A stretch of DNA of 64,000 nt, from assembly GCA_963815115.1 (NCBI GenBank), contig CAWFFN010000008.1, forward strand, positions 160,001 to 224,000, given 5' to 3'. The notes beneath the pieces are model-generated. The model searched no databases. It was given only the letters and a program-made list of their open reading frames with translations, and was not told where the DNA came from. Position 1 is the stretch's first letter. Every line of letters begins with the position of its first letter. The translations under genes were made by a program, and so were the position numbers. Shown here piece after piece: positions 6,517-27,467 of this stretch. Source of the DNA: an uncultured delta proteobacterium. Lineage in GTDB: Bacteria > Desulfobacterota > Binatia > DP-6.

Positions 6517-6892
6517 CAGCTCCCGGCACGCTCCGGCCCGCCGGGGCAGCTTTGCGGCGCGCACCGGGACCGCCACGACGGCCTCGGGACGGGTCCGGCG
6601 GGCGACGGCGCGTGCACTCTGCGCCGGCCATTTCCCGGGCGATCCGCTGCTCCCCGGGGCCGCCCTCGTGGCCCTCATGGCCGAGCTCGGTGCGACGCTC
6701 GGCGGCCCGCGTGCCCGGCTGGTGGCGGTCGAGCGCAGCGTCTTCCGCCGTCGCGTCGGTCCCCATGCCGGCATCGTCGTCAGTGCCCGCCGGGTGCGGG
6801 CCGTGAAGAGGGGATTCAGCGTCCACGCCACCGTGACGGGCAGGACCGACGTCGCGGCGTGGGCGATCCTGCGCTTCGAGGATGCGCGGTGA
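6512..6892 (+). CDS. Hot-dog 3-hydroxyacyl-ACP dehydratase subunit (FabZ/ApeI-like); start uncertain
   Basis: In-frame GHFPGDPLLPGA motif lies upstream of the called GTG at 6668. No ATG/GTG/TTG precedes the motif in frame. Confidence 0.6.
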   Translation: MSSSRHAPARRGSFAARTGTATTASGRVRRATARALCAGHFPGDPLLPGAALVALMAELGATLGGPRARLVAVERSVFRRRVGPHAGIVVSARRVRAVKRGFSVHATVTGRTDVAAWAILRFEDAR

Positions 6893-7281
6893 CGCTTCCG
6901 GCGCCCGGCGTCATGCTGAGACACCGGCCGCCGGCCCTGCTCCTGGGGACGGTCGACGCCCTCGTGGACCGCACGCTGGCCTGCACGGGGATCGACGCGG
7001 GGCGCTGGCCGTGGCCTCGCCTCCTGGAAGGCACCGCGCAGACGGCCGGACTGCTCGCGGGGCTTCAGCCCGGGGGCCCGGGCCGCGATGCGGTGATCGC
7101 CGAGTACCGCGACGTCTCTCTCGGCGTCGAGCGCCATCGCGGGCGCGTCCGCTTCGAGGCACGCCTCGAGCGCCGGCTGGCGCACTTCTGGCGCTGTCGC
7201 TGCGAGGCCCTCGCGGCCGACGGCCGCGTCCTGCTCGCGTCCCGGGTCACCCTGGCCCGCGCGCCGCAGCGCGAGGCGTGA
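6889..7281 (+). CDS. Hot-dog dehydratase subunit (ApeP/FabZ-like)
   Basis: GTGA overlap with the previous gene. LRHRPPALLL and LLEGTAQTAG match the FabZ-type PHRxPxLL / ExxAQ motifs. Confidence 0.7.
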   Translation: MTLPAPGVMLRHRPPALLLGTVDALVDRTLACTGIDAGRWPWPRLLEGTAQTAGLLAGLQPGGPGRDAVIAEYRDVSLGVERHRGRVRFEARLERRLAHFWRCRCEALAADGRVLLASRVTLARAPQREA

Positions 7282-8456
7282 GCATGGCCTCGTTCGCCGT
7301 CGAGCCGCTCGACCCGCGCGCCTACGAGCGCCTCGCGGCCGCGGGTCTGGCGCCGGATCCCTTCAACCCGGCGCAGCATCGCAGCTGCGAGCTGGTGGAG
7401 CGCTACGCCGTCGACACGGCGCTCGACCTGTGCAGCCGGCTGGGCGTCCTCGAGCTGCTCCACGCGCCGCGCTCCGTCCAGGCGCTGTGCGCGGCGCGCG
7501 GCTTCCTGCCGGCCTTCGAGCGACCGCTGCGCTGGCTGCTCGAGCGTCTCGTGGCGGCGGACGTGCTCGCGCGCGCCGGTACGAGCTACGAGCTCTCCGG
7601 ACCACCCCGGGAGCCGGCGCTCGCGGCGCTGCGCGCGGAGGCGCTGGCGGACGACCCGTCGTATGCGCCCGCCTACGACCTGCTCGACGCCGTGGCGGCG
7701 CTCTACCCCGGCGTCGCCCGGGGCGAGGTGCAGGCCGAGCGCGCGCTGTTCCTCCGCGCCCGTCTCTGGGCGGCCTACTTCGACAACGCGAACGGGTACT
7801 ACGCGCTGAGCAATCGGGTGGCCGCGCGCGCGGCGGCGGTCCGGCTCGGCAGCGGCGGCCAGGTGCTCGAGGTCGGCTCGGGCCTCGGCAGCGCCACGGA
7901 CGCGCTCCTCGCCGAGCTGCGGGCACGCGGCGCGCTCGGGCTGGTGACCGCCTTTCGTGCGACCGAGCCAGCGCTCTTCTTCCGCCGGCGCGCCCAACGG
8001 ACGCTCGAGCAGTCGTGGCCCGACGTCGCGCTCACCTTCGATGCCCTCGACGTCAACCGGCCGTGGGCGGCGCAGGGCGTCGAGCCGGGAACGTATGCGC
8101 TCGTCTGGGGCGTCAACGTGTTCCATCTCGCCCGTCACCTCGACGACGCGCTCCGCGAAGCCCGCGCCGCGCTCGTCCCTGGCGGCTGGCTCGTCGTCGG
8201 CGAGGGCATGCGACCCGGGCCCGGCGTCCCGGTCGGCGCCGAGCTGCCCTTCCAGCTCCTGGACAGCTTTCACGACGTCGTGCTCGATCCCGCCCTGCGA
8301 CCGACGTCGGGGTTCCTCACTGCCGAGCTGTGGCAGGATGCGCTCCGGCGCGCGGGCTTCGACGACGTCGCGCTCTTCCCCGACGTGATCGAGCTGCGCG
8401 AGAGCTATCCCGGATTCGTCGCGGCGGCGGCCTGCGGCCGGCGCCCGCGGCGCTGA
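7278..8456 (+). CDS. Stand-alone SAM-dependent methyltransferase resembling PKS C-methyltransferase domains
   Basis: VLEVGSGLGSAT SAM motif; GVNVFHLA..ALVPGGWLVVGE (cMT NVxH...PGGxLxxxE); LTAELWQDALRRAGF. GTGA-coupled to the dehydratase. Confidence 0.75.
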   Translation: MSMASFAVEPLDPRAYERLAAAGLAPDPFNPAQHRSCELVERYAVDTALDLCSRLGVLELLHAPRSVQALCAARGFLPAFERPLRWLLERLVAADVLARAGTSYELSGPPREPALAALRAEALADDPSYAPAYDLLDAVAALYPGVARGEVQAERALFLRARLWAAYFDNANGYYALSNRVAARAAAVRLGSGGQVLEVGSGLGSATDALLAELRARGALGLVTAFRATEPALFFRRRAQRTLEQSWPDVALTFDALDVNRPWAAQGVEPGTYALVWGVNVFHLARHLDDALREARAALVPGGWLVVGEGMRPGPGVPVGAELPFQLLDSFHDVVLDPALRPTSGFLTAELWQDALRRAGFDDVALFPDVIELRESYPGFVAAAACGRRPRR

Positions 8457-8510
8457 CGCGGAACCTGCCGATTCCTTGAATCCGCCGCGAGAGGTCTGTA
8501 CACGCCCGCC

Positions 8511-9266
8511 GTGCGTGCCTCCCGACACCGCGCCGCTGGATGGCTGGCAGCCGTCGTCGTCCTGCTTGGCTGCGGCTCGACCTCGACGACGAAGCCCGGT
8601 GCCCCGGCGGGCATGGTCTACATCCCGCCTGGCGAGTTTCTCATGGGCAGCGCCGCGGACGATCCGGCGGTCTACGACTGGGAGCGGCCGCACGAGCAGC
8701 CGCAGCACCCCGTCTGGGTCGACGGCTTCTACATCGACGACCACGAGGTCACCAACGCCGACTTCGAGCGCGTCACGCCCACCCACCCGCGCAGCAAGCT
8801 GTCGCCCTGCGACGACTGCCCGGTGACCGACGTGTCGTGGTGGGCGGCGGAGTCGTACTGCGCGAGGCAGACGCCTGCCCGGCGGCTGCCCACCGAGGCC
8901 GAATGGGAGAAGGCAGCGAAGGGCGGCCTCCCGGCGTGGGAGCCCGAACCCTTCGAGGAGTACGTGTGGGACGCCAAGAACACGATCAGCCGGGCGCAGC
9001 CCGTGGCGACCAGGAAGGCGAACCCGTACGGGCTCCACGACATGCTCGGGAACGTGCGCGAGTGGACCGCCGACTGGTACGGGCCGGACTACTACCAGCA
9101 GCGGGAATACACGAACCCGAAGGGACCGCCCGGGGGCATACGTCGGGTGGAGCGCGGAGGAGCGTTCTTCCTGCCCAGGCGCGGCGTGACCACGACGATC
9201 CGCTACAACCATCCACCCCACTTCACGCTGTACTTCCTGGGCTTCCGCTGTGCGATGACGCCGTAG
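8511..9266 (+). CDS. FGE-sulfatase (SUMF1) domain lipoprotein, probably non-catalytic
   Basis: Lipobox LLGC; GEFLMGS, EVTNADF, RLPTEAEWEKAA, NPYGLHDMLGNVREW, RGG, GFRCA. The catalytic Cys pair is missing. Confidence 0.85.
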   Translation: MRASRHRAAGWLAAVVVLLGCGSTSTTKPGAPAGMVYIPPGEFLMGSAADDPAVYDWERPHEQPQHPVWVDGFYIDDHEVTNADFERVTPTHPRSKLSPCDDCPVTDVSWWAAESYCARQTPARRLPTEAEWEKAAKGGLPAWEPEPFEEYVWDAKNTISRAQPVATRKANPYGLHDMLGNVREWTADWYGPDYYQQREYTNPKGPPGGIRRVERGGAFFLPRRGVTTTIRYNHPPHFTLYFLGFRCAMTP

Positions 9267-9273
9267 CGCTCGA

Positions 9274-10083
9274 TCAGGCGGGCGGCCCACCTGCGAGCGC
9301 CCGGACGACGGCGAGCGCGTCGCACAGCGCCCGCACGTCGTGCGTGCGCACGTAGTCGGCTCCCTGCGCGGCCGCCCACAGCTCGGCAGCGAGGGTCGCC
9401 GGCGCGCGCCCGCTGACGTCGCGACCCGTGACCGCGCCGAGGAACGATTTGCGCGAGACCGAGATCCACACCGGCCGGCGGAAGCGCGCCTTCAGCTCTC
9501 CGAGTGCGCGCAAGACCACCAGAGAAGCCTCCGGGTCGCCGCCGAGGAAATAGCCCATGCCGGGGTCGAGGACGACGCGCTCCAGGGACACCCCCGTCGA
9601 CTCGAGCGCGGCCAGCCGCGCGGCAAAGAAGTCCCCGATCCGCTCGACGAGCCCGCGCGGGTCGACGGGGTCACGGGTCGCGGTCGGCGCGCGCTGGACG
9701 GAGTGCATCACCACCAGGCGGCAATGAGCCGGCGCCAGGTCCGGGTAGATGGCGGGGTCGGGAAATCCGCGGATGTCGTTCAGGTAGGCGACGCCGCGCG
9801 CGAGCGCGTAGCGCTGCGTCTCGACCTGCCAGGAATCCACCGACACGGCCACGCCGCGGGGGAGGAGCGCGTCGAGGACGGGCTCGAGCCGACGGATCTC
9901 CTCGGCCGAGCTGACGGGAGCGGCGTCCGGGTTGCTGGCCGCGGGACCGACGTCGACCACCGCGGCCCCGTCCGTGACCAGACGCAGGGCATGGGCGACG
10001 GCCTCCTCGGTCTCGCCGAATCGGCCACCGTCCGAGAACGAGTCCGGGGTGAGGTTGACGATGCCGACGACCTGCGGATGCAT
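9274..10083 (-). CDS. folP: Dihydropteroate synthase of the Sul1/Sul2-like (sulfonamide-insensitive-type) group
   Basis: GIVNLTPDSFSDGG, DVGPAASNPDA, YLNDIRGFPDP, VVMHS, DPGMGYFLG, SVSRKSFL, YVRTHD. Confidence 0.92.
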   Translation of the reverse strand: MHPQVVGIVNLTPDSFSDGGRFGETEEAVAHALRLVTDGAAVVDVGPAASNPDAAPVSSAEEIRRLEPVLDALLPRGVAVSVDSWQVETQRYALARGVAYLNDIRGFPDPAIYPDLAPAHCRLVVMHSVQRAPTATRDPVDPRGLVERIGDFFAARLAALESTGVSLERVVLDPGMGYFLGGDPEASLVVLRALGELKARFRRPVWISVSRKSFLGAVTGRDVSGRAPATLAAELWAAAQGADYVRTHDVRALCDALAVVRALAGGPPA

Positions 10084-10486
10084 GGCCCGCGTCAGCGACG
10101 CGGATCCATCGTGTACCACACGCAGGAGATTCGGCGGAGGCGCCGGCCAGGGTCGCGGGGGAGGGACCGACCAGCGCCTCCGCACGGGGATCTGACTGCC
10201 ATCCATGGGCTGTCAGCGCGGCGGAGGTGCTCGTTCTCGGATTCGCAATGATCGCTTGCCCATCTCTTCTCCGCTCTCCGCGCTGCCACGAGACGGCGTA
10301 CGTGACCACATGCAGCGCGCGTGCCGGACCGCTACGTCGGACCCCATCGCCGCGCGAGTCACGCATCCTCGCGGCTTTTCCCCGTTTGCGGCGCGTGCCC
10401 CGGGGCGGCGGCTCCGCCGGCGGCGGGGCACCCTGCCCTGGCCTGGGGCGGAATGCCGCGCCCCGCACCGCGTCAGACGGCGCGAT

Positions 10487-11482
10487 CTACGCGGGGCGTC
10501 TCGCGGCGACGGACGTCCGGATGGCGCGCGCCAGGAGATAGCCGAGTCCCGGCATGACCCAGAGGAGCTCCCGCAGCCGGACCGCGAGTCCGACCGCGAA
10601 GCCCACGTCGGCGGGGTATCCCAGCATGGAGAACAGCCAGAGCTGGCTCCCCTCGAGCACCCCGATGCCGGCGGGGACCGGCATCGAGTGCACCGCCCCG
10701 GTGGCGAAGATCGCCGCCACCACGGCCAGCGGACCCGAGGGCAACCCGAACGCCGACAGCAGGAGCCAGTACTCCAGCAGGACGAGCAGGTGGCCCGCCA
10801 CGCCGAGCGCGAAGGCCAGTCCCACGCGGCGCGGCTGCGCGGCCAGGGCCACCACGTCGCCCTCCGCGGCCCCGATCGTTCCCATGCGCGCACGGATCGG
10901 CCCGAACCGATCGAGCCCGAAGCCGCTCGCGACCGCGGTCACCACTCCCTCACCCCGTCGCAGGCGCCGGATCATGAACCCGACGCCGACGACCAGCCCG
11001 ACCGCGGCCGCACACAGCGTGAAGGCGGCCCCGCGCAGCGCCGGCACCCCCTGCTGCACCAGGACGCTGCCGAAGACGGCGGCGAAGACCGAGCCGCTTC
11101 CCATGTCGAGGGTGCGGTCGACGGCGACGCTGGCGATCGCCTGCGGCGTCGGGACCCCGTGCTGGGCGGCGAGATAGGCGCGCAGGGGCTCGCCGCCCAT
11201 CCGCCCGCTCGGGATCAGCGTCGACAGGCTGTGCCCCGCGGCCCGGCAGGCCATGAGGGTGCCGAGGGCCACGTGCGACCCGAGCGCCGTCAGCAGCACA
11301 CCCCAGCGCCGGCCGCAGGTCGCGAACTCCGCCGCGATGACGAGCACGAACGCCGCCAGCAGCGGCGCCGACGGCGCCCGCGCGAGCAGTGACAGGGCGG
11401 GCTCACCGTAGCGGTGCAGCGCCCACGCGAGCGCGGCGGTGCCCACCACCAGATTGGTTCCGAGGACGACGGTGGCGCGCAC
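10487..11482 (-). CDS. Lysylphosphatidylglycerol-synthase TM / flippase-like membrane protein (UPF0104)
   Basis: Multiple TM segments; RW..LL, PSGRMGGEPLRAY, VDRTLD, PVPAGIGVLEG, R-ELLW. Confidence 0.8.
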   Translation of the reverse strand: MRATVVLGTNLVVGTAALAWALHRYGEPALSLLARAPSAPLLAAFVLVIAAEFATCGRRWGVLLTALGSHVALGTLMACRAAGHSLSTLIPSGRMGGEPLRAYLAAQHGVPTPQAIASVAVDRTLDMGSGSVFAAVFGSVLVQQGVPALRGAAFTLCAAAVGLVVGVGFMIRRLRRGEGVVTAVASGFGLDRFGPIRARMGTIGAAEGDVVALAAQPRRVGLAFALGVAGHLLVLLEYWLLLSAFGLPSGPLAVVAAIFATGAVHSMPVPAGIGVLEGSQLWLFSMLGYPADVGFAVGLAVRLRELLWVMPGLGYLLARAIRTSVAARRPA

Positions 11483-11495
11483 GCCGGGCGCGGCC

Positions 11496-12667
11496 TCAGG
11501 ACGAGCCGGCGGGCTCGAAGCAGTCGATCGTCGCGCCGGCCTCGAGGTACTCGCCCAGGATCGCCTCGATGGGCCGGTGGTCGAGGACCTCGAACTGGCT
11601 CGCCTCGAGGTCGAAGCGCGCGCCGCTCTCGGTGTACGGCGCGACGCCCGGAGAGCCGGGCGTGAGGACCCCGATCACCGGCACGAGCCGCCGTTGCATG
11701 CGTGCGGGCTCGCGCGTCGAGATCACCACCTTGGCCCGCGGTGCGGCGAGCGCCAGGACGGTGACCAGGCGGCACAGCCGATCGTCGTCGACGCCGGCGG
11801 GATACGGCGTCCCGCTCGCCCGGCGCAGCCGCGGCAAGCTGACGTAGACCTCCATGCCGCGCGCCTCGAGGTGGCGGACGTGCGCGAGCAGGGCGAGCAG
11901 CTCCCAGGCGACGTCGGAGTTGAGGCCGAGGAGCACTCCGGGGTTCGCCACCCACATGCCGGCATCGCAGGCGCGATCGAAGTTCAGGAGCCGCCGCGCG
12001 TAGTCGCTGCGGGGGTTCTCCGGGTCCGTGCCCATGAAGCGTCCGTAGACCTCCGGCTGGTAGGTCTCCTGGAAGGTGCACATGGTGAGGCGCGGCGCGA
12101 CGCGGCCGTCCCCGATCCTGCGCGACCCCGTCGAGGAGGAGGTCGTAGTCGGGGGCGTCGAGCGAGCCGATGTTGACCAGGACGTGGCGGAAGCCGCGCG
12201 CCAGCGCCGCCCGCAGCGCCGCCGCGGCGCGCTCGATCATCGCCTGCCGTCGTGCGCCGTGGCGGTACTCGCCGCTCAGGATGGCCACGGCGCGCAAGCC
12301 ACGACGATGGAGAATGTCGAGCTGGGATTCCACCGTGGTCTCGTCCGCCGACTCCCGGACCAGCTCGGCATTGGAGCGCCGCATGCCGCACATCAGGCAC
12401 GCCGCGTCGCACTCGTTGGTGATGTAGAGCGGAGAGAAGGTCTCGAAGCGGAGGCGATCGTCGCTGCGTCGCGCACGGGCGAGCGCGATCAGCTCGTCGG
12501 TGCCGACGTCGGTCGGCGAGGAACAGCGTCGCGGCCGCCTCGTCATCGAGCGTCGCTCCCGCGCGCGCGAGGTCGGCGATCGCCCTGCCCTCTCCTGCCT
12601 CGGCACGCGCGGTCGCGCGTGCGCGCATCGCGCCGAGCGTCTCGGTCTCGAGGCGGAACCAGGCCAT
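11496..12667 (-). CDS. Radical SAM aromatic amino acid lyase, NosL/NocL-like (ThiH/HydG family); about 2 frameshifts
   Basis: Assembled from three overlapping ORFs: TFSPLYITNECDAACLMC, LSGEY, NIGS, MCTFQETY, NPGVLLGL, SLPRLR, ISTRE, TPGSPGVAPY, SQFEVLDHR. Confidence 0.8.
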
Positions 12668-12682
12668 GGCGGCGGACGTATA

Positions 12683-14078
12683 TCAGCGCGTTCGCGAGCG
12701 CTCCAGGGTGCGGGCGAGACGCCGCCGCCGCGCGGCCGTGCGGAACGTCCGTCCGAGCCAGCGCCAGGTCTCGCCCGCCGTGGGCCGCGGCCACTCGATC
12801 ATCCCCTGCATCAGCGTGAGCACGTGACGCCCGGGCCGCGTCCAGTCGCTCAGCACGATCGGCTTGTAGACGTGCGGACTGCGTCCGAGGAGCTCGACGT
12901 CGAGCAGCTCGTCACGCGGCACGGTCTCGATCTCGACGGGCAGGTCGCCGAGTGCCGCATGCAGCGCCGCCGAGGCCTCGGCGGTGGCGCTGCGGCCATC
13001 CGTCTCGACGCGCACCAGGAGCCGATCCGGCAGCACGACGGCGAGGAAAACGGCGCTGTCGAGCGCGTCCGCCGCCGCGGCCGCGGCGTCCACGAGCAGG
13101 TGCGCGTGCAGGCGCCGGCCCGCCAGCGTCACGACCTCACCGGCCCGGCCGAGGACCACGATGCCCGGCCGCGTGTCGCCGCAGGCGCACGGGGGCAGTC
13201 GCCGTACCACGTCGCCCGTGTCGAGCCGGATGAGCGGGCTGCCCTCGACGCCGAGGGTGGTCACGACGAGTCGGCCCTCGTCGCCGTCAGCCGACCGGAC
13301 TCCCCGTCGCGTCGAGCACCTCGCAGTACGCCAGGGAGGTCTCGAGATGCAGGGTCCCGGCCGGGCAGGAGGTACCGAGCAGCATGGTCTCGGTCGAGCC
13401 GTAGAGCTCGATCACCTCGACGTTCCAGGTCCGGGCGAGGCGCCGCCTGAGGGCCGGCGGAAGCGCGGACCCGCCGAGGAGAAAGGTGTCGAAGGCAAGC
13501 TCCCGGCGCACGTCGAGGCCGCGGCCGCGCGCGATCTCGCCGAGCACGACCGGCTCGAGGGGGAGACCGGCGAGCACCTGCGCGCCGGTGCGGTGTGCCA
13601 GCTCGAGCGCGCGGGGAAAGGGCACGTCCCAGTTGATGTTCCCCGCGGGGATCGACACGCCGCCGCCCTGCTGCGCGACGAGCTGGATCAGGTGCGCGGG
13701 AGCGGCCATGAACGGGAACCGGTTCAGGATGATGCGGCCCGGAGCGAAGACCGTCGGGTGCGCGGCGCGCAGTGCGCGCGCGTCACGCTCGAAGTCCGCG
13801 GTGGTGAGCCAGGTCGAGTTGGTGCCGCCGCTGGTCCCCGACGATTCACCGTAGTGCGCGACCTCGCCGAGCGGCACGGCGCGCGTGCCGTGCGGGCCGA
13901 CCCGTTGCAGATCGGCGCGCGTGGTGATCGGCAGGGCACGCAAGTCCTCCAGGGACCGGAGGCGTACGGTGGCGAGGCGCTCGGCGTAGAGGATGCTGCC
14001 CCGGGCACGATCGATGGTGGCCTCGAGAGCGGTCAGATCGCCCTCGGCCGCCGCCTGCGTGGAGAGGACCTGCGACAC
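12683..14078 (-). CDS. Phenylacetate-CoA-ligase-like (PaaK family) adenylating enzyme; frameshift near 13285
   Basis: LPITTRADL, ESSGTSGG P-loop, ELYGSTET, then after the shift TTL..SPLIRLDTGDVV..CACG..VLGR. Confidence 0.82.
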
Positions 14079-14111
14079 TGCCGCCGCCAGCCTGTGTCGG
14101 ATGCGAGCCGC

Positions 14112-14133
14112 GAGTCAAGGACGAGATTGACTC
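14112..14133. promoter_or_regulatory. Palindrome GAGTCAA-N8-TTGACTC: back-to-back -35 boxes or an operator between divergent genes
   Basis: Perfect 7-bp inverted repeat placing TTGACT on both strands in the intergenic region. Confidence 0.45.
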
Positions 14134-14156
14134 CCGCGGGCGCCGCGACTACAGGG

Positions 14157-14324
14157 CGAGCCGAGACTCCGACTCGGCTCGGGACGCGGAGCGAGAATGA
14201 AGCGCGATGACCCGTGCGCACGTCGTACCCGCGCCGGCTTCGCCGGCCGCGGCATGGCGTGCGCGCGATCCACCGACCGCCACGTCCTCGCCCCGCTTTC
14301 GACCCGAGACGGAGTCTCCCGTCG
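14157..14324 (-). repeat. Three-hairpin REP/MITE-like element, copy 1
   Basis: Terminal hairpins cgagccgagactccgactcggctcg and cgacccgagacggagtctcccgtcg. 14229-14259 is the exact reverse complement of 21347-21377. Confidence 0.75.
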
Positions 14325-16029
14325 CGCCCCCTGGCGTATCGCGTGCGTCCCGGGCGTGCTCGCGCTGCTGCTCGCCGCCCCGAATCTGGCGGCGGCCGGC
14401 TCCTGGGAGGTGACGCGCAAGACCGTCATCGACCCGCTCAACTCGGAGCTCCACCGCCATCTTCCCACCTTCGTCCGCCAGCGCGACCTGGACGGCATCA
14501 TCGGGCTCTACGCGGTGGACACGGGCGGCGGGCTCACCTGGGACGGCGCGCAGCCGGCCTACCCCGAGCGCGAGGAGCGGATGCTGCGCTGGGCCGGTCC
14601 CGCGGGTGCCGAGCGGATCAAGGAGCGCTGGGAGCACCTCCTCGCCCTCCTCCCGACCATCGAGAAGGCGGAGCTGCGCATCGGGCGGGTCGGCTGGCGC
14701 GACGCCGACGAGCGCGGCTACCCCGCGGGCGTCCGTCTCCTGGTGCGCGGGACCTGCGCCGATGGCGCCCGCTGTCAGCTCGACCAGCACATGACGCTGC
14801 GGGTGCGAGCCGAGGGCAACCGCTGGGTGATCACCAACGAGGACGTCACGGCACGCGAGCTGGTCTCCCGCATCGACCCGCGCTTCGCGCTCGTCACCGA
14901 GGCTGCCGGGATCGCGAACGTCCACGCGAGCGGGCCGTCGCCCGCCTTCCAGCTCTTCGGCGGCGCCGACCAGAGCCCGGTGCAGGCCAGCGGCGGCAGC
15001 GCCGTCGCCGACGTCGACGGCGACGGCTGCGAGGACGTCCTCCTCGCCGGATCGCCGGAGGCGGCGCTCTACCACAACAACTGCGACGGCACCTTCACCG
15101 ACGTGACCGCCGCGTCCGGCCTGCCCCGTCCCTATCCCGCCGCCGCCACCGGCGTCGTGTTCTTCGACTACGACGACGACGGCGACCCCGATCTCTTCGT
15201 CGCCGCGGTCGTGGGTGGCGACCGCCTGTTCCGCAACGACGGCGGCGGCCACTTCACGGAGGTCACGGCGGCGGCCGCCATCCCGGCGTCGCGCTGGACG
15301 AGCATGCCCGCCGTGGCCGACTACGACCGTGACGGCTTCCTGGACCTCTACCTGGTGCACATGGGCGATCACGAGAAGACCGTTCCCGAGCCGAGCTACG
15401 CCGCCCGCAACGGCGTCCGGAGCGTGCTGCTGCACAACGAGCGCAACGGCACCTTCCGCGACGTCACCGCACACGCGGGCGTCGGCTTCCACGGCTGGGG
15501 CCTCGCGGGCGCCTGGGGGGACTACGACGGGGATGGCTGGCCCGATCTCTACGTCGCCAACGAGTTCGGCTCGAACGCGCTCTATCGCAACCGCCACGAC
15601 GGCACCTTCGAGGAGGTCGCGGCGCGCGCCGGCGTGACCGACGGCGGCGCGGGCATGAGCGTCGCGTGGGGCGACTACGACGGCGACGGCGACCTCGACC
15701 TCTACGTCTCGAACATGCACGCCAACTCGGGCTGGGCGCTGTTCCATCCCGACTTCCCCCTGCCCATTCCCACCGCCTTCCGCGTGCTCGGGCTCCTCAC
15801 GTCCGAGGTGCGACGGCGAGGCGAGGCGATCACCGATCGGCTGCTGCGCGGCAGCACCCTGTTCCGCAACGACGGCGGCGGTCGCTTCACCGACGTCAGC
15901 GACGCCGCCGGCGTGCGCGACGCGCAATGGGGCTGGTCGGCGGAGTTCCTGGACTACGACAACGACGGCACCCTGGACATCTACGCCACCAACGGGTTCA
16001 TCTCCGGACCGATCCTGGACGATGTGTGA
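14197..16029 (+). CDS. Secreted FG-GAP/VCBS repeat protein (CRTAC1 family), N-terminal part; true start may be downstream (e.g. 14254 or 14356)
   Basis: Repeated DxDxDGxxDL / LFRNxGxGxFxDV units. Ends at an in-frame TGA directly followed by the ASPIC-UnbV ORF. Confidence 0.85.
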   Translation: MKRDDPCARRTRAGFAGRGMACARSTDRHVLAPLSTRDGVSRRAPWRIACVPGVLALLLAAPNLAAAGSWEVTRKTVIDPLNSELHRHLPTFVRQRDLDGIIGLYAVDTGGGLTWDGAQPAYPEREERMLRWAGPAGAERIKERWEHLLALLPTIEKAELRIGRVGWRDADERGYPAGVRLLVRGTCADGARCQLDQHMTLRVRAEGNRWVITNEDVTARELVSRIDPRFALVTEAAGIANVHASGPSPAFQLFGGADQSPVQASGGSAVADVDGDGCEDVLLAGSPEAALYHNNCDGTFTDVTAASGLPRPYPAAATGVVFFDYDDDGDPDLFVAAVVGGDRLFRNDGGGHFTEVTAAAAIPASRWTSMPAVADYDRDGFLDLYLVHMGDHEKTVPEPSYAARNGVRSVLLHNERNGTFRDVTAHAGVGFHGWGLAGAWGDYDGDGWPDLYVANEFGSNALYRNRHDGTFEEVAARAGVTDGGAGMSVAWGDYDGDGDLDLYVSNMHANSGWALFHPDFPLPIPTAFRVLGLLTSEVRRRGEAITDRLLRGSTLFRNDGGGRFTDVSDAAGVRDAQWGWSAEFLDYDNDGTLDIYATNGFISGPILDDV

Positions 16030-16596
16030 ATGGACATGTTCGAGGGCGTCGGTCGACGCTCAGAGCACAGCACCGGGCGGTTCCTCAACATCGGCCAGCA
16101 CAGCCTGAACGGCTACGAGCGCAAGGTGCTCTTCCGCAACAACGGCGACGGCACCTTCACCGACGTGGCCTACGTCAACGCCGCCGACCGCGTCGAGGAC
16201 GGCCGCGGCCTCTCGATCGCCGACCTCGATCGCGACGGCGAGCTCGACCTCGTGCTCCGCAACTACCACCAGCCCGCCCAGGTCCTGCGCAACCAGGGCG
16301 GGCCGGCGCACTGGCTGCAGCTCGTGCTCGTCGGCACGCGCTCGAACCGCGATGCCGTGGGCGCACGGGTTCGGCTCCGCACCGGGCAGCACTGGCAGAC
16401 CCGTGAGGTCCATGCCGGCTCCGCCTACCTGTCCCAGCAGAGCCTGGTGCAGCACTTCGGCCTCGGTGACGCGCGGCGGGCCGACGAGGTGCAGATCGCG
16501 TGGCCGTCCGGCGCGCGCAGCACGCTCGGCCCGCTCGATGGCGATCGCCGGTGGCGGGTCGTCGAGGACGGCGGCGTGGAGCCCGTCGGTCGCTAG
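16030..16596 (+). CDS. ASPIC/UnbV domain (C-terminal part of the CRTAC1-family protein, possibly joined by UGA read-through)
   Basis: SLNGYERKVLFRN, DGRGLSIADLDRDG, HWLQLVLVG..SNRDAVGARV, GSAYLSQ..HFGLG..IAWPSG. Same frame as the upstream ORF. Confidence 0.85.
   Translation: MDMFEGVGRRSEHSTGRFLNIGQHSLNGYERKVLFRNNGDGTFTDVAYVNAADRVEDGRGLSIADLDRDGELDLVLRNYHQPAQVLRNQGGPAHWLQLVLVGTRSNRDAVGARVRLRTGQHWQTREVHAGSAYLSQQSLVQHFGLGDARRADEVQIAWPSGARSTLGPLDGDRRWRVVEDGGVEPVGR
16044..16061 (+). promoter_or_regulatory. Candidate bacterial SECIS hairpin
   Basis: Stem GGGCGTC/GACGCTC with a GGTC loop whose first G lies 22 nt after the in-frame TGA at 16027-16029. Confidence 0.55.
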
Positions 16597-16639: not shown

Positions 16640-16668
16640 TTGACACCCTCCGGTGCCGCCGCCATCAT
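16640..16668 (+). promoter_or_regulatory. Sigma70-like promoter
   Basis: TTGACA-17 bp-CATCAT, ending 14 nt before the ATG at 16683. Confidence 0.45.
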
Positions 16669-16682
16669 CGCGCGGCCGCACG

Positions 16683-18044
16683 ATGCGCATCCACCTGATC
16701 TCGCCGACGCACTACCTGCCCGACGGGCGCCTCCACAAGACGACGCGCTACTGGACGAGCGGTACCACGCTGCCGTACCTGAAGGCGCTCACGCCGCCGG
16801 GGCACGAGGTCTCGTTCACCGACGAGCTGATGCGCGACCTCGACGTCGAAGGCATCGCGCGCGACGCCGACGTGGTCGGGCTCACCGCCATGGGGCCGCA
16901 GATCCGCCGCGCCTACGACCTGGCGGACGATTTCCGCGCCCGCGGCAAGCGCGTCGTGCTCGGCGGGACCTGGGTGACGCTCACCCCCGAGGAGTCGCTG
17001 CGCCATGCCGACGCGGTGGTCGCCGGCGAGGCCGAGGAGGTCTGGCCGCGGGTGCTCGCCGATCTCGCGGCTGGCCGCACCGGAAGCATCTATCGCGCCG
17101 CCCGCTGGCACGACCTGCGCGGCCTGCCCGCGATCGATCCCTGGACGCTGCCGCTCTTGAAGGCCGACGCCTTCCGGCGCAGCTGGCTCTACCGCATGTA
17201 CTTCTTCTGGCCGGTCTTCTTCTCCCGCGGCTGCCCGCATCCCTGCGAGTACTGCGCGGTGCAGACGTACTACCAGCGCACCTTCCGCACGCGCCCGGTT
17301 GACGAGTTCGTCGCCGACGTGCAGCGGATGACCGCCTTCGGCGCCCGGCGCTTTCTCTTCATGGACGACAATCCCTTCGCGCACCCCGAGGCCGCGAAGG
17401 AGATGCTGCGCGCCCTCGTCCCCCTCCGCATCCAGTGGGTGAGTCAGGCCACCATCAACGTGGCGCGCGACCCCGAGCTGCTCGATCTGGTGGCGCGTTC
17501 CGGCGCGCGCGTGCTCTCCATCGGCTTCGAGAGCCTGTCCGAGGAGAGCCTGGCGTCGGTCTCGAAGCAGTTCAATCGCCCGAGCCGCTTCAAGGACGAT
17601 CTCGCCCGGCTGCGCGCGCGCGGCATCCAGGTGATCGCGCTGCTCATGGTCGGACTGGACGGCGACACGCTCGAGACCTTCCCCGGCATGCTGCGCTGGC
17701 TCGACGACAACAAGATCAGCTTCCTGAAGCTGTTCACGCCGGCGCCCTATCCCGGCACGAAATTCCATGCCGACATGGACGCCGCCGGCCGGCTTCTCGG
17801 CGCCGACTGGGGCCGCTACGACTACGGCAGCCCGAACGTACGCCCGCTGCACATGACCACGGACGAGATGCTCGACGGCTTCCGCTCCGTCTACTCGGGC
17901 TTCTACTCCGTGCGGAGCATGCTGCGGCGATTCGTGCCGCCGCCACGACGCCACCTCCTCGAGTCGCTCGCGATGCTGGTCGCGAACGCCAAGGTGCACG
18001 GCTATCTCCGGCGCAACCCCGAAGCCTGGGGCACCATCTCGTAA
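16683..18044 (+). CDS. Cobalamin-binding-domain radical SAM enzyme (class B-like)
   Basis: B12-binding-like N-terminus (DVVGLT..VVLGG..GEAE), FSRGCPHPCEYC, FMDDN, IGFES, TPAPYPGT. Confidence 0.85.
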   Translation: MRIHLISPTHYLPDGRLHKTTRYWTSGTTLPYLKALTPPGHEVSFTDELMRDLDVEGIARDADVVGLTAMGPQIRRAYDLADDFRARGKRVVLGGTWVTLTPEESLRHADAVVAGEAEEVWPRVLADLAAGRTGSIYRAARWHDLRGLPAIDPWTLPLLKADAFRRSWLYRMYFFWPVFFSRGCPHPCEYCAVQTYYQRTFRTRPVDEFVADVQRMTAFGARRFLFMDDNPFAHPEAAKEMLRALVPLRIQWVSQATINVARDPELLDLVARSGARVLSIGFESLSEESLASVSKQFNRPSRFKDDLARLRARGIQVIALLMVGLDGDTLETFPGMLRWLDDNKISFLKLFTPAPYPGTKFHADMDAAGRLLGADWGRYDYGSPNVRPLHMTTDEMLDGFRSVYSGFYSVRSMLRRFVPPPRRHLLESLAMLVANAKVHGYLRRNPEAWGTIS

Positions 18045-18958
18045 GCGGCCGCGCCCTCCTCGACGGCGGCAGCCGTCTCGCCCCAGACCTCCTCGAACAT
18101 GAGCCACTGCGACGGGCGCTCGCGCACGATCCCCTCGTAGAGCCGGACGGTCGCGACCAGCGCCGCGACGCTGTCGGCCGGCGTGCGCGGATCGAAGCGG
18201 GCCGCGACACGCAGCTCGTAGCGCCGGATGCCGGTGCGCACGGCGAACACCGGCACGATGGGCGCGCGCGCGACCCGCGCCACCGCGAAGGGGCCGAGCT
18301 GGAACCGCGTCGGCCGGCCGCAGAAGTCTACCTCGTGGCTGCCGCGCTTGGGCCCCCACGGCTCGATCTGCATGCCGACGATCTCGTGGCGGCGGAGCGC
18401 GTGCAACGCGGGCAGGCCGGCGAACAGCGAGCGGTCCGAGTAGAGCACGGTGAACCCGTGCCGCGTCCGCATCGAGTGCAGGAAGTCGTGCACCGTGGGG
18501 TTCTGCTCGTGCGCCGTCACCAGGTTGACCGGGCGACCGAGCCGGTTGAGGACGCGCGCCCCGATCTCCCAGGAGCCGAAGTGGCCGGTGAGCACGACCA
18601 GGCCGCGGCCCTCCGCCAGGGCGCTCTCGAAGAGCTCGCGCCCGTCGATGGTGAGCTCGACCGGGCGCGGATGAGGGCCCCATTGCTCCATCCCCTCTGT
18701 CATGGAGCGGGCGAGCTCGGCGAAGACGCGGTAGGCGTCCCAGCGCTCGCGGAGCCAGCTCCGCGGTCCCTGGACCTGGCGCTGGTTGTGGAGGACGCTC
18801 TCGCGCCGCGACCGGGCGACGCCGAAGAGGATGGCCGCGATCGCCGGCGGCGCGCCGCGCTTCCACCACTCCGGGCCATAGACGCAACCCAGTTCCGCGA
18901 AGCGGCGCCACGCCCCGCCGTCGAAGCGCAAGGCGGCTCGAAGGCGCCCCGGGTCCAT
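18002..18958 (-). CDS. Lysophospholipid acyltransferase, LpxL/HtrB-like
   Basis: GRGLVVLTGHFGSWE, FCGRPTRFQLGPFAVA..APIVPVF, ERPSQWLMF. Confidence 0.85.
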   Translation of the reverse strand: MDPGRLRAALRFDGGAWRRFAELGCVYGPEWWKRGAPPAIAAILFGVARSRRESVLHNQRQVQGPRSWLRERWDAYRVFAELARSMTEGMEQWGPHPRPVELTIDGRELFESALAEGRGLVVLTGHFGSWEIGARVLNRLGRPVNLVTAHEQNPTVHDFLHSMRTRHGFTVLYSDRSLFAGLPALHALRRHEIVGMQIEPWGPKRGSHEVDFCGRPTRFQLGPFAVARVARAPIVPVFAVRTGIRRYELRVAARFDPRTPADSVAALVATVRLYEGIVRERPSQWLMFEEVWGETAAAVEEGAAAYEMVPQASGLRRR

Positions 18959-19036
18959 CCGGCTGACTTATCGGAGCGCTGGAGGCGCCTCAAGATACGT
19001 TGTCACGGGGCGCGAAGCGGCGTAGGGCTCTCCCCC

Positions 19037-21385
19037 ATGGACACGATCGCGACGCACTATCGCACCTGCTCCCTGTGCGAGGCCACCTGCGGGCTCGAGA
19101 TCCGGACTCGCGGCCCGGAGATCGTGAGCATCCGGGGCGACGAGGCCGACCCGTTCAGCCGCGGCTACCTGTGCCCCAAGGGGCCGGCGCTGAAGCACCT
19201 GCACGACGATCCCGATCGCCTGCGCGAGCCGATGATCCGTCGCGGCGCCACCTGGGAGCGGGTCGGCTGGGGCGAGGCGTTCGCCGAGATCGACCGCCGG
19301 CTGCCGCCCATCATCCGCACGCACGGGCGCGACGCGGTCGCCGTCTATCTCGGCAACCCGTCGGCGCACCTCCTCTCCGCTCATGCTGTACCCGCGCGCG
19401 CTGCTGCGCGCCTCGGCACGCGCAACCTCTTCTCGGCCAGCACCGTCGACCAGATGCCGAAGCAGGTCGAGCGCGGGCTCATGTTCGGCACGCGCGCTGA
19501 GCGTGCCGGTGCCCGACCTCGACCGCACCGTCGTTCCTGCTCGTCCTCGGCGCCGATCCCGTGGTGTCGAACGGCAGCCTGATGACGGCGCCCGACGTGA
19601 AGGCGCGCCTGCGCGCCATCCGCGCACCGCGGCGGCAAGCTGGTGGTCATCGACCCGCGCCGCTCGCGCACGGCGGAGGAGGCCGACGAGCACCACTTCA
19701 TCCGCCCGGGCACCGATGCGCTGTTCCTCTTCGCCCTCGTCCACACGCTGTTCGCGGAGAACCTCGTCCGGCTCGGCCGCCTCGCACCGCACGTGGCCGG
19801 CGTCGAGGCGGTGGAGCGCGCTGGCGCGCGAGTTCACGCCCGGAGGCCGTCGGCGCCGCCTGCGGCATCCCGGCGGACACCATCCGCCGGCATCGCACGC
19901 GCGCTCGCCGCGCGCCGAGTCGGCCGCGGTCTACGGTCGCGTCGGCACGTGCCAGCAGGAGTTCGGCACCGCTGGCGAGCTGGCTCGTCGACGTGCTGAA
20001 CGTGCTCACCGGCAACCTCGACCGGCCCGGCGGCGCGATGTTCACCAAGGCGGCGGCCGGCGCCAGCAACACGCGCGGCGAGCCCGGACGCGGCAAGGGC
20101 GTCCGCTTCGGACGGCGCGACGAGCCGCGTGCGCGGGCTGCCCGAGGTCTTCGGCGAGCTGCCGGTCGGCTGCCTCGCCGAGGAGATCGAGACGCCGGGC
20201 GAGGGCCAGATCCGGGCGCTCATCACCATCGCCGGCAATCCGGTGCTCAGCACGCCGAACGGCGCGCGGCTGTCGGCCGCGCTCGGCTCGCTCGAGTTCA
20301 TGGTGAGCCTCGACATCTACCTGAACGAGACGACGCGCCACGCGGACGTGATCCTGCCGTCGCTCTCGCCGCTCGAGTCGTCGCACTACGACCTCGGCGC
20401 TCTGGCAGCTCGCCATCCGCAACTACGCAAACTACTCGGCGCCCGTCTTTTCTCCGCCGTCGGGTCGGCCGACCGACTGGGAGACCGTCCTGCGGCTGAC
20501 CGGCATCGTCATGGGTCAGGGACCCGACGCCGACACGGACGCGCTCGACGACTTCGTCGCCCTCCAGCAGGTGGAGAGCGCCGTCGGGGCGGCGGGCTCC
20601 TGCGTGCAGGGACGCGCACCGGCCGAGCTGATGGCCGCGCTCGCCCCGCGACGCGGCCCGGAGCGCCTGCTCGACCTGATGCTGCGCACCGGGCCGTACG
20701 GCGACGCATTCGGCGCGCGGCCCGACGGGCTCTCCCTGCGGCGCTCGAGGCGACCCCGCACGGGATCGACCTGGGCGCGCTCGCGCCGCGCATCCCCGAG
20801 GTCCTGCGCACCCGCTCGGGCATAGATCGAGCTGGCGCCGCGCCGAGATCACCGCCGACGTCCCCCGGCTGCGCTCGCGTCTCACGCGGCCGGAGGGCGG
20901 CATCGACGCTCGTCGGCCGCCGGGACCTGCGCTCCAACAACTCCTGGATGCACAACATCGAGCCGCTCGTGCGCGGCGAGACCGCGCTGCACCCTGTGGG
21001 TGCATCCCGACGACGCCGCGCGCCTCGGGCTCGCCGACGGCGCCGCCGGCGCGCGTGCGCTCGCGCGCCGGGCGCCTCGACGTGCCGGTGGAGGTCACCG
21101 ACGCGATCATGCCCGGCGTGGTGAGCATGCCGCACGGCTGGGGCCACGACGCGCCCGGGATGCGCGTTGCGCGTCGCGTCCGCCAACGCCGGCGTGAACA
21201 GCAATCTGCTGGCCGACGAGCTGGCGATGGATCCGCTGTCCGGCAACGCGGTGCTGAACGGCATCCCCGTAAGCGTGTGTCGAGCCGAGACCTCGTCTCG
21301 GCTCGAAGGGGAAGGCGAGCGTGTGGCGTCCGGTCCCTCAGGCGACCGCCATGCCGCGGCCGGCGAAGCCGGCGCGGCAAAATAG
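19037..21385 (+). CDS. Molybdopterin-dependent oxidoreductase with N-terminal Fe4S4 motif; many frameshifts
   Basis: RTCSLCEATCG..LCPKG, DPDRLREP, YLGNP, GNPVLSTPN, DIYLNETTRHAD, SNNSWMHN, PGVVSMPHGWGH, NGIPV spread across frames. Confidence 0.8.
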
Positions 21386-21481: not shown

Positions 21482-21895
21482 TTACCGGGGCTGGGCCAGC
21501 GTGAGCCGCCCTTCGGCGCACAGCCGCCCGTCGACCAGGGCGCGGCCGCGCAGCTGCGTCGCGGCCTGGAAATGGCGCAGCACCTCGACCTCGATGCGGA
21601 GGACGTCACCGACCCGCACCGGATCGAGGACCCGGAAGTCGTCGACGGCCGCAAGGTAGCCCGGCTGGGGCGCGTCGTCCTTCAGGGCCGAGAGGAGCGC
21701 GCCCCCACCCTGGGCGAGGGTCTCGAGGAGGAAGGCCGCCGGCAGCGTGCCATCCGCTGCCACGCAGGGATCCGAGGCGGCCACGTGCTTCAGGAAGACG
21801 CCGCAGCGGTCGCCGATCTCGAGCACCCGGTCCAGGAGCAGGAAGGGGGCGGCGTGCGGAAGGCGGGGAAACGGAGTCCGCAGCTCGCTCATCAC
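21482..21895 (-). CDS. 3-hydroxyacyl-ACP dehydratase (FabZ/ApeP-like)
   Basis: LPHAAPFLLLDRV, LLETLAQ, GYLAAVDDFRV..PVRVGD. Confidence 0.85.
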   Translation of the reverse strand: MMSELRTPFPRLPHAAPFLLLDRVLEIGDRCGVFLKHVAASDPCVAADGTLPAAFLLETLAQGGGALLSALKDDAPQPGYLAAVDDFRVLDPVRVGDVLRIEVEVLRHFQAATQLRGRALVDGRLCAEGRLTLAQPR

Positions 21896-23013
21896 GCTGC
21901 CTCTAGCCGGAGCGGCCGACACGCGCCACCCCGGGCGAGACCGTCGACCAGCACCCGGCGGACGGGCATCGCGCGCGCCGCGCCCGTGACCACGTCGAGG
22001 CCGCGGGCCGCCCCAGCTGGCCAGCCGATCGTGGGCGGCACGAGCGCGTGCGACATCGCCAGCGCGGCCGCCGCCACGGCGAGCGCTCCCGCGGCACCGA
22101 AGCTGCCCGTCGTGCCGCGCGGCGCCGTCACCGCCACCGGACGCCCGGCGAACGCGCGCGCGAGCGCCTCGGCCTCCAGCCCGTCCAGCACCACGTCGCC
22201 GTTCGCCGCCGCGACCACGAGGTCGACGTCGGCGGCGAGCGGTGCGAGGCGGCGCGCCAGCTCGCCCGCGTCGGCGGGCCACCCGTGAACCGGGGCCGGG
22301 ACACCGAAGCCTGCGTGCGGCACGAGACGCGCGTAGCGGCGCGCGCCCCGACGAAGTGCGCGCGCCGACGACTCCAGTACGAGCACCGCGGCGCCTTCGC
22401 CCGGAGTCGCGACGGCGCCCGACGCACGGCGCGCCGCGCGCTCGAGGCCCGGAAGGGCCGTGGCGAGCTCGTCCGCCGCGCCCGCCAGGCAGACCTCGGC
22501 CGTACCCTCGCCGACCTGTCGCGCTCCCCACCCGATCGCCGCCTCCCCCGAGGCCTCCTGCTCGGTCACCATCGCCGACGGTCCCGTGATGCCCAGCTCG
22601 ATCGCCAGGTAGCTGAGCGGCGCGTTCATCACCAGGTTCGGGAAGAGGAGCGGGTTGCCGGTGCCGCGGTCGAAGATGCGATCGAGAAAGGTGATCGTCT
22701 CCTCGACGTTACCGAATGCGGAGCCCAGCGCGAGCGCCGTGCGCGGCGGCGCCAGTGCCTCGGGCTCGAGACCGGCGTCGGCCAGGGCGAGCCGTGCGGC
22801 CGCCAGGGCCAGCAGCGACGTCCGATCGATCCGGCGTCCCTGCGCCGAACGAACCCAGCGGCGCGCCTCGAGGCCCTCCACCCGCGCCGGCGCGGCGGAT
22901 TCTCCGGGTGCGCGAGCGCCGCGGCCTGCGACGACCGCCTCCCAGAACGGCTCCACGCCGACACCGAGCGCGCTCACCACGCCGATGCCGGTCACGGCCA
23001 CGTCACCGATCAC
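21892..23013 (-). CDS. Non-catalytic ketosynthase-like chain-length factor
   Basis: KS fold (VAVTGIGVVSALG, NPLLFPNLVMNAP, GEGAAVLVLE). Catalytic Cys replaced (TEQEASG); His motifs absent. Confidence 0.8.
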   Translation of the reverse strand: MIGDVAVTGIGVVSALGVGVEPFWEAVVAGRGARAPGESAAPARVEGLEARRWVRSAQGRRIDRTSLLALAAARLALADAGLEPEALAPPRTALALGSAFGNVEETITFLDRIFDRGTGNPLLFPNLVMNAPLSYLAIELGITGPSAMVTEQEASGEAAIGWGARQVGEGTAEVCLAGAADELATALPGLERAARRASGAVATPGEGAAVLVLESSARALRRGARRYARLVPHAGFGVPAPVHGWPADAGELARRLAPLAADVDLVVAAANGDVVLDGLEAEALARAFAGRPVAVTAPRGTTGSFGAAGALAVAAAALAMSHALVPPTIGWPAGAARGLDVVTGAARAMPVRRVLVDGLARGGACRPLRLEAA

Positions 23014-24230: not shown

Positions 24231-24238
24231 ACCGACTC

Positions 24239-24499
24239 CTACGGCTGGCGCTCCGCAACGATGAAATCGACCAGCGACCGCACCGAGGCAAAGGCTCGCT
24301 TGCCCACCTCCTCGTCCGGAATGGAGACCCGGAATCGATCCTCCACCAGCACGACGAGCTCGAGCGCGTCGATCGAATCGAGACCCAGCCCGTCGCCGAA
24401 GATGGGCGAGTCCTCGGGGATGTCGCTCGGCGGACGGTCGAGCCGAAGCCCGGTCACCAGGAGCTGCTTCACCTCCGCGGCGAGCGCGTCGCGATCCAT
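24239..24499 (-). CDS. Acyl carrier protein (aryl-polyene/ladderane type)
   Basis: 86 aa, acidic; IFGDGLGLDSIDALELV phosphopantetheine Ser motif. Confidence 0.92.
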   Translation of the reverse strand: MDRDALAAEVKQLLVTGLRLDRPPSDIPEDSPIFGDGLGLDSIDALELVVLVEDRFRVSIPDEEVGKRAFASVRSLVDFIVAERQP

Positions 24500-24510
24500 C
24501 GCGCGCCTCT

Positions 24511-27412: not shown

Positions 27413-27467
27413 CGCAACTTAGCCCAGGACGTCGGGTGGTGCACGACGCTGGCCGGCGGCGGCGACG

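Follow-up and report, generated by a model that had tools for sequence, protein, structure and literature searches.

The window analysed here is a stretch of 64,000 nucleotides from an uncultured delta proteobacterium (GTDB lineage Desulfobacterota; Binatia; DP-6), positions 160,001 to 224,000 of contig CAWFFN010000008.1 in assembly GCA_963815115.1. It carries a radical S-adenosylmethionine (SAM) gene whose protein, judged by sequence comparison, belongs to an uncharacterised sister subfamily of NosL, among the radical SAM amino-acid lyases of the ThiH/HydG/NosL group. The reading that we favour, at roughly even odds (about 0.5), is that the gene is intact in the living organism and that this member of a NosL-sister subfamily makes an aromatic, probably indolic, acid that feeds the adjoining ligase in a polyene-lipid cluster. 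To our knowledge, the fragmentation and recombination of a carbon chain in the manner of NosL has been described only for the thiopeptide pathways to nosiheptide and nocathiacin. A conserved subfamily encoded with an acid-activating ligase, and often with polyene-lipid genes, points to a second, lipid-linked use of NosL chemistry.

We rate the lipid-linked context of this NosL-sister subfamily as new. A search of the literature brought up no account of NosL-like enzymes from Binatia or from polyene clusters, and the two nearest clusters in the ESM Atlas (51 and 52 members) are labelled "hypothetical protein". The host lineage is of phylum level and has no cultured members. The enzyme is described here as a target for enzymology, where the substrate amino acid, the bond that is cut and the product are at stake, and its cluster as a handle on the membrane contents of these widespread soil bacteria. 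An earlier description of the same DNA, made from the letters without database searches (the sequence-only reading), had called the gene a NosL/NocL-type tryptophan lyase outside any thiopeptide context; what it observed is confirmed, and its interpretation is partly supported.

The gene and its protein

The gene is annotated as follows, in positions of the window.

11499-12667, minus strand: NosL-branch radical SAM aromatic amino-acid lyase homologue, about 389 aa on read-through, with a CxxxCxMC motif and a BATS domain, in three frames in the assembly

The three frame pieces lie on the minus strand. The first (12667..~12512) starts with MAWFRLETE, the second (~12510..12124) carries SPLYITNECDAACLMCGMR, LSGEY and VNIGSL, and the third (12119..11499) carries MCTFQETY, YGRFMG, NPGVLLGL, SLPRLR, STREP, PGSPGVAPY and SQFEV. 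Every motif that the sequence-only reading had listed is found across these pieces (CDAACLMC, PLY, GEY, NIGS, MCTFQE, YGRFMG, NPGVLLGL, TRE, PGSPGVAPY and SQF), and the CDSECKMC that it had attributed to NosL, with Met before the last cluster Cys, is seen in the alignment with PDB entries. The CDAACLMC motif, the BATS domain (27.6 bits against a cut-off of 22.2) and a modelled fold that matches radical SAM barrels place the protein in the radical SAM superfamily with BATS; the Radical_SAM profile on the middle piece alone gives 19.8 bits, below its cut-off of 29.5.

A subfamily sister to NosL

Profile scores, sequence comparison with known structures, phylogeny and fold all bear out the earlier claim that the protein resembles NosL more closely than ThiH or HydG. 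Among NCBIfam models, TIGR04158 (3-methyl-2-indolic acid synthase, NosL) is the best match of two of the window's pieces, with 94.6 and 161.4 bits; the same pieces give 47.6 and 91.9 bits on ThiH and 22.5 and 80 on HydG. Intact orthologues score 273.3, 263.4 and 259.7 bits on TIGR04158, whose cut-off is 400, and representatives of the family about 252; the orthologues reach about 150 bits on ThiH (TIGR02351, cut-off 380) and 103-116 on HydG (TIGR03955, cut-off 312). A search of PDB sequences ranks NosL (6HTK, 4R33) first with 260 bits, followed by HydG 4WCX with 111, HydG 4RTB with 89 and ThiH 7PD1 with 86. An orthologue was modelled with AlphaFold2 from 12 aligned sequences (mean pLDDT 85.6, pTM 0.89); compared by Foldseek, the model has NosL chains as its top five matches (template modelling (TM) score 0.88-0.90, 39-41% identity), with HydG at TM 0.79 and ThiH at 0.78.

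A maximum-likelihood tree (50 rows, 386 kept columns, LG+C20+F+G4) locates the protein more precisely. Its rows are the window's protein (with X at the two breaks), 11 locus orthologues, 3 family representatives, 1 NosL, 9 NosL-like proteins, 8 ThiH, 8 ThiH-like and 9 HydG; the database rows were selected from the matches of the representatives search described below, fragments, most ThiH/HydG matches, CofH, FbiC and MqnE were left out, and NosL above the cut-off is represented by one row. Support for the entire NosL branch is 100/100, in agreement with a quick tree. Within it, all 15 rows of the window's family are monophyletic (96/95) and sister to a clade of NosL and the 9 NosL-like representatives (99/98), and so stand outside the NosL clade.

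The earlier name of NosL/NocL-type tryptophan lyase thus holds as far as the NosL branch is concerned, but not as an equivalog: with 252-273 bits against 400 and a separate sister clade, NosL is not the name under the NCBI equivalog rule, and specificity for tryptophan is an inference.

The family appears small. Searched exhaustively with the C-terminal piece, a set of 1.84 billion cluster representatives returned 508 proteins at E<=1e-3 and only 22 at E<=1e-30. Profiles were scanned against 72 full-length proteins chosen from 150 listed matches, together with 3 orthologues. Among the listed matches scanned, P0021 alone passes the NosL cut-off (573.5 bits); NosL is the best model, below cut-off, in nine more, and the remainder are ThiH, HydG or ThiH-like. 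These nine representatives make up a broader radiation of NosL-like proteins below the cut-off, none of them seen to be characterised. A separate curiosity is P0041 (711 aa), a fusion whose N-terminal half resembles a mycofactocin-maturase radical SAM protein (95 bits, below cut-off) and whose residues 379-690 form a NosL-like domain (246 bits).

Active site and substrate

Several active-site residues separate the two branches. According to an excerpt of PMC9046217, ThiH R300 and NosL R323 are a strictly conserved Arg that faces the substrate amino group, ThiH R306 stabilises the tyrosine phenolate below the beta-8 insertion, and ThiH E158 touches the tyrosine carboxylate at a position where HydG has Asn. 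An excerpt of PMC9850924 gives R323, Y90 and S340 as mutated active-site residues of NosL, and S340A as accepting N1-methyl-Trp. These positions were compared in an alignment of 50 rows, 25 from the NosL branch (15 of them the family) and 25 from ThiH/HydG, in which 6HTK numbering reproduces R323, S340 and Y90.

At the position of ThiH R306, six residues after the TRE Arg, Arg is found in none of the 25 NosL-branch rows and in all 25 ThiH/HydG rows; the family (15/15) and SaNosL have Gln. The extra residue after the beta-8 GS is absent from 25/25 NosL-branch rows, which also have Asn at the E158 position in every case. The residue before the last cluster Cys is Met in 23 of the 25 NosL-branch rows, which include one Ile and one Val, and Tyr in 25/25 ThiH/HydG rows. 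The equivalents of NosL R323 and Y90 are invariant in the family, and that of S340 is Thr in 11/15 family rows, the window included, and Ser in 4/15. Together these residues indicate that a free alpha-amino acid would be bound as in NosL and that the tyrosine-phenolate site is lacking; the best guess for the substrate is tryptophan.

The likeness to NosL and NocL (4R33, 6HTK, 6HTO; TIGR04158) extends from the fold to CxxxCxMCGMR, the Asn in the NIGS strand, the Gln after TRE, the missing beta-8 bulge residue, PGSPxVAPY and an adenylating enzyme encoded alongside. Seven barrel-strand motifs (LTGEY, NIGS/A, MCTFQETY, NPGVLLGL, SLPRLR, STREP and PGSPGVAPY) are near-identical to those of S. actuosus NosL. 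Unlike NosL, the window's protein and its close kin have Thr at S340 and four additional residues before the FQETY strand, and they are found without thiopeptide machinery, in a polyene-lipid cluster of metagenome-assembled genomes (MAGs) labelled Binatia, Deltaproteobacteria or Myxococcota, where NosL and NocL belong to actinomycetes.

A cassette with a ligase and a flippase-like protein

The radical SAM gene stands between two genes of the same strand.

12683-14078, minus strand: adenylate-forming ligase of the PaaK/FlxY/BagE kind; the frame changes once, near 13294, and the ligase stop precedes the radical SAM start by 15 nt
10490-11482, minus strand: flippase-like membrane protein (LPG_synthase_TM, TIGR00374), starting 13 nt after the radical SAM stop

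Gaps of 15 and 13 nt make this a tightly packed operon. The 15-nt distance given by the sequence-only reading is correct: the ligase ends with a stop codon at 12683-12685, and the ATG of the radical SAM gene is at 12667. The ligase scores 131 bits on BagE/FevW, 108 on the DVU_1553 family, 97 on FlxY and 95 on PaaK, all far below the cut-offs. On LPG_synthase_TM the flippase-like protein reaches 105.8 bits, and it passes the cut-off on TIGR00374; it belongs to an MprF/HpnL-type family. Its reading as HpnL of a hopanoid pathway was rejected (79.9 bits against a cut-off of 195.65, and no hopanoid genes seen).

The gene occurs in 22 of the 41 genomes searched with the C-terminal piece (own genome included): in 19/24 other genomes of the same family, 2/2 of a second family and 0/14 from nine other families of the class. 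When 185,579 species were scanned, each represented by one genome, 70 distinct loci were found, all in MAGs, whose record titles are mostly Candidatus Binatia, Deltaproteobacteria or Myxococcota, with a few other labels. Neighbours were counted by tblastn over these 70 loci, many of them on short contigs.

Ligase: 49/70 loci
Flippase-like protein: 44/70 loci
TIGR04072-like B12 radical SAM protein: 36/70 loci
Flavin adenine dinucleotide (FAD) halogenase-like protein: 26/70 loci
Second B12 radical SAM protein: 19/70 loci
LpxL-like acyltransferase: 18/70 loci
Methyltransferase: 11/70 loci
Decarboxylase: 5/70 loci

An MMPL gene is present in 5/70. Of the 34 loci that are 15 kb or longer, a ketosynthase (KS) lies within 10 kb in 17, a ketoreductase (KR) in 16, a B12 radical SAM gene in 20, a halogenase-like gene in 17 and a tyrosine ammonia-lyase (TAL) in 7. 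There is also a second type of locus, with the ligase convergent and no polyene genes near; here the ligase is the sole broadly shared neighbour (10/15 loci) and the flippase-like gene is missing. From these counts the durable unit is the radical SAM gene plus the ligase, with the flippase-like and polyene genes frequent and not universal. The analogy that the sequence-only reading drew with the NosL-NosI pair survives in part: the gene is conserved with an adenylating ligase, but that ligase is PaaK/FlxY/BagE-like, and no NosI sequence was among those compared.

The surrounding lipid-pigment cluster

The cassette is embedded in a larger set of genes, in the window and upstream of it on the same contig (C8).

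5065-6513, plus strand: LysA-like pyridoxal phosphate (PLP) decarboxylase, 264.5 bits against a cut-off of 297.9, syntenic in close relatives
6882-8453, plus strand: SAM-dependent methyltransferase, convergent on the cassette in relatives
14131-16593, plus strand: FG-GAP/ASPIC protein
16644-18041, plus strand: B12-binding radical SAM protein, the paralogue counted in 19/70 loci
18005-18967, minus strand: LpxL-like (lipid A / lysophospholipid) acyltransferase
19037-21277, plus strand: molybdopterin-oxidoreductase-like gene, conserved in the cluster, between the LpxL-like gene and the KS genes
21895-23142 and 23013-24230, minus strand: chain-length factor (CLF)-like protein and KS
24260-24442, minus strand: acyl carrier protein (ACP)
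24517-25254, minus strand: KR
25269-26297 and 26228-27418, minus strand: CLF-like protein and KS
C8:148165-149667, upstream of the window: TAL, an aromatic amino-acid ammonia-lyase
C8:153750-155066, upstream of the window: CmlS-like halogenase, 347 bits
C8:155087-156505, upstream of the window: B12 radical SAM protein, whose orthologue scores 345 bits on TIGR04072, "lipid biosynthesis B12-binding/radical SAM protein" (cut-off 360)

A set of type II fatty acid synthase/polyketide synthase (FAS/PKS)-like genes, which the sequence-only reading does not mention, spans 21895-27418, and housekeeping genes follow from about 28 kb onward. With KS/CLF present twice, ACP, KR, ligase, LpxL-like acyltransferase and TAL, the surroundings have the make-up of an aryl-polyene/flexirubin-like type II PKS-FAS cluster: this is a lipid-pigment cluster and not a peptide cluster. 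In the window no gene for a dehydratase, a glycosyltransferase, MMPL or a LolA-like protein was identified. The lyase homologous to the TAL in locus L039 (39% identical to that of the window's own region) scores 438 bits on the BagA/FevW TAL model and 316 on FlxA.

The placement outside a thiopeptide context is borne out by the whole genome, which has no YcaO match (NosI, NosJ and NosK were not searched for). A search with Lant_dehydr_N was likewise empty, as were its controls. The further absences reported from the window (thiG, thiS, hydrogenase maturase) received no separate search; a whole-genome profile search with the ThiH family matched only this locus, below cut-off.

The cluster's ligase and the homologous lyase of L039 match the families of flexirubin FlxA (TAL)/FlxY (PaaK-like acyl-coenzyme A (CoA) ligase) and bagremycin BagA/BagE, with all of these scores far below the family cut-offs. 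The setting is also alike in its type II KS/CLF genes, its halogenase and its LpxL-like acyltransferase. We know of no radical SAM amino-acid lyase in the flexirubin and bagremycin schemes. With aryl-polyene (APE)/TIGR04072 clusters the window's cluster shares KS/CLF pairs, ACP, KR, an LpxL-like acyltransferase and an aryl-acid ligase, and it has in addition the NosL-like radical SAM protein and the flippase-like protein.

A second LpxL-like acyltransferase paralogue lies at C8:152226-153101 (window positions -7774..-6899), adjoining the halogenase and the TIGR04072-like B12 radical SAM gene; it is 63-71% identical to the copies of relatives.

Proposed role

How could a NosL-like enzyme serve a polyene lipid? 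In the reading that we favour, the radical SAM enzyme would bind a free aromatic L-amino acid, most likely tryptophan, and the 5'-deoxyadenosyl radical formed on SAM cleavage would take a hydrogen from its amino group. A C-C fragmentation of the NosL type, followed by rearrangement or recombination, would then yield an aromatic (indolic) carboxylic acid, which the PaaK/FlxY-like ligase may adenylate and load onto CoA or the cluster's ACP. The loaded acid could act as the polyene starter or as a decorating acyl unit. The halogenase, the B12 radical SAM enzymes and the methyltransferase would tailor the aromatic head; the LpxL-like enzyme would anchor the product to a lipid, and the flippase-like protein would move the lipid-linked product across the inner membrane.

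A more specific version, which we put forward only tentatively and hold to be doubtful as it stands, is that a tryptophan-derived indole carboxylic acid (3-methylindole-2-carboxylate or a relative) is the starter or head-group unit of a type II KS/CLF system in uncultured Binatia-type soil bacteria, which would make halogenated, methylated "indolyl-polyene" membrane lipids, an as yet undescribed class of pigment lipid, and export them by the MprF-like flippase.

Alternatives

A number of observations weigh against the favoured reading. The first concerns the ligase: by analogy with flexirubin initiation, the cluster's TAL could supply it with 4-coumarate, and the radical SAM enzyme would then be left without a step; this is the main weakness. 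The second concerns the product, which need not be 3-methyl-2-indolic acid in a protein that falls short of the NosL equivalog cut-off (273 against 400 bits) and outside the clade of NosL above it. Third, R323 and Y90 are also conserved in ThiH/HydG, so the case for tryptophan comes down to the negative tyrosine markers and S340T. The family also has a specific 4-residue insert right before the TMCTFQETY strand. Finally, the link with polyene synthesis does not hold throughout, since 17 of the 34 long loci lack a KS within 10 kb.

Much the same evidence favours the alternative that survives best, in which the NosL fold carries out another chemistry or acts on another substrate (a non-indole amino acid, an amino-acyl or a lipid-linked intermediate) and the cassette is a self-contained membrane-lipid modification module near polyene genes. 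The sister position, the insert, the loci that lack a KS, where only the ligase is shared, the TAL as an alternative source of ligase substrate and the MprF/HpnL-type family of the flippase-like partner are all in its favour. The near-identity of the seven barrel-strand motifs to NosL and the invariance of the Arg and Tyr by which a free alpha-amino acid is anchored speak against it, as does the lack of a flippase-like gene at the convergent-ligase loci. We consider it possible, though on balance unlikely.

A tyrosine lyase of the ThiH/HydG type, cleaving tyrosine between C-alpha and C-beta to p-cresol and dehydroglycine, is considerably less probable. The protein does share the superfamily, the N-terminal helical domain, the full TIM barrel, BATS and the PLY and TRE residues with ThiH (7PD1) and HydG (4WCX, 4RTB), its matches to the ThiH and HydG profiles are weaker and still significant, and the cluster is related to tyrosine through its TAL. 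Yet it is grouped away from ThiH/HydG with 100/100 support, its scores on both models are below cut-off (150 bits against 380 for ThiH), and the tyrosine-phenolate signature is absent. Specifically, it differs from both enzymes in having Met instead of Tyr before the last cluster Cys and in lacking the R306 equivalent, the beta-8 bulge insertion, and E158 or its HydG substitute, residues whose value as markers is taken from the excerpt of PMC9046217. Nor is the C-terminal auxiliary-cluster domain of HydG (profile about 380-470) matched: the 389-aa protein covers HydG positions 36-378 of 470.

Frameshifts: assembly errors or a pseudogene

Is the gene broken in the organism or only in the assembly? 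The DNA was aligned with eight intact orthologues from related genomes, and the indels that had been noticed near 12510 and 12110 come out as exactly two one-base extra columns, near 12511-12517 and 12119-12121; apart from these, the alignment has indels only at its ends.

12511: extra single base at the first frame change; 8/8 aligned orthologues lack it, and one covering X2 contig omits it
12121: extra single base at the second frame change; lacking in 8/8 orthologues, in X5 record 21 and in X2

The 22 strong matches in other genomes (E <= 3e-77) are all open, without internal stops, in frames of 307-562 aa. Sequencing runs tell a similar story. Logan contigs of four runs were mapped on window positions 11300-14200; X1 and X3 have no coverage at either break site. 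An X5 contig of 151 nt, with 2 other differences from the window, has one base fewer at 12121, and X2 contigs, from a relative about 95% alike, have one base fewer at each of 12121, 12511 and 13294.

The rest of the genome argues in the same direction. The assembly consists of 12 contigs and 6.9 Mb, and the genome is estimated to be 100% complete. The essential single-copy gene secA, on the window's contig some 21 kb upstream of it (C8:136576-139709), is broken into six pieces that alternate in frame, a dnaE paralogue (C9:584396-588245) is in five, and the molybdopterin-oxidoreductase-like gene at 19037-21277 on the plus strand matches its orthologue in three pieces in frames 1, 2 and 1, and so has two more frame changes. 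In the same genome rpoB, rpoC, the dnaE on C7, uvrA and ileS are intact. Broken genes beside intact ones indicate that indel errors are regionally clustered in this assembly and that the window lies in one such cluster. The lesson is that broken genes in this assembly are not to be called pseudogenes without reads.

Selection on the coding sequence is also visible. Read in its three frames, the gene has a dN/dS of 0.21-0.28 against three orthologues; 24 of the 30 differences from the X2 relative that are listed within 11499-12119 fall at third codon positions, with 92 further differences outside the list; and none of the frame pieces contains a substitution that creates a stop.

That the radical SAM gene and the adjoining ligase are genuine pseudogenes in this strain, with real frameshifts, was weighed at first because rpoB is intact, and was dropped after secA, the dnaE paralogue and the molybdopterin-oxidoreductase-like gene were found in the state described. 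In its favour are three single-base insertions within 2.9 kb in a genome where the five genes named above are whole, and the fact that the near-identical contigs of the four Logan runs cover neither 12511 nor 13294, which for 12511 also counts against the favoured reading. The regional indel clusters, the contig that lacks base 12121 with only 2 mismatches in 151 nt, and the dN/dS together with the absence of substitution-made stops stand against it, and we regard it as very improbable. The question that the sequence-only reading had left on its own account, whether the frameshifts would prove real, is answered by orthologues, reads and secA: the extra bases in the radical SAM gene are most likely assembly errors.

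Least probable of all, and highly unlikely, is a true NosL orthologue whose product is 3-methyl-2-indolic acid itself, destined for a cryptic thiopeptide or some other peptide: NosL structures are its nearest likeness and the paired adenylating enzyme recalls NosI, but a genome estimated to be complete has no YcaO, the protein falls below the TIGR04158 cut-off and outside the NosL clade, and its neighbours are lipid and polyketide genes.

Other features of the window

Between the methyltransferase and the flippase-like gene stand two genes, a formylglycine-generating-enzyme-like gene (8457-9263, plus strand) and a dihydropteroate-synthase-like Pterin_bind gene (9277-10212, minus strand). In relatives, loci L002, L003 and L010 among them, the methyltransferase and the flippase-like gene abut directly, so the window's 8457-10212 looks like a local insertion.

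The FG-GAP/ASPIC gene contains an in-frame TGA at 16027-16029 with conserved flanks (GPILDDV * MDMFEGVGRR), and the TGA recurs in L039 (~6774-6776) and L020 (~15003-15005). A hairpin resembling a selenocysteine insertion sequence (SECIS) begins 17 nt past the TGA, but its stability does not exceed that of shuffled sequence (z = -0.02). The TGA may be a selenocysteine site in a CRTAC1/ASPIC-type protein; the window's own genome encodes a tRNA-Sec at C12:592973-593068.

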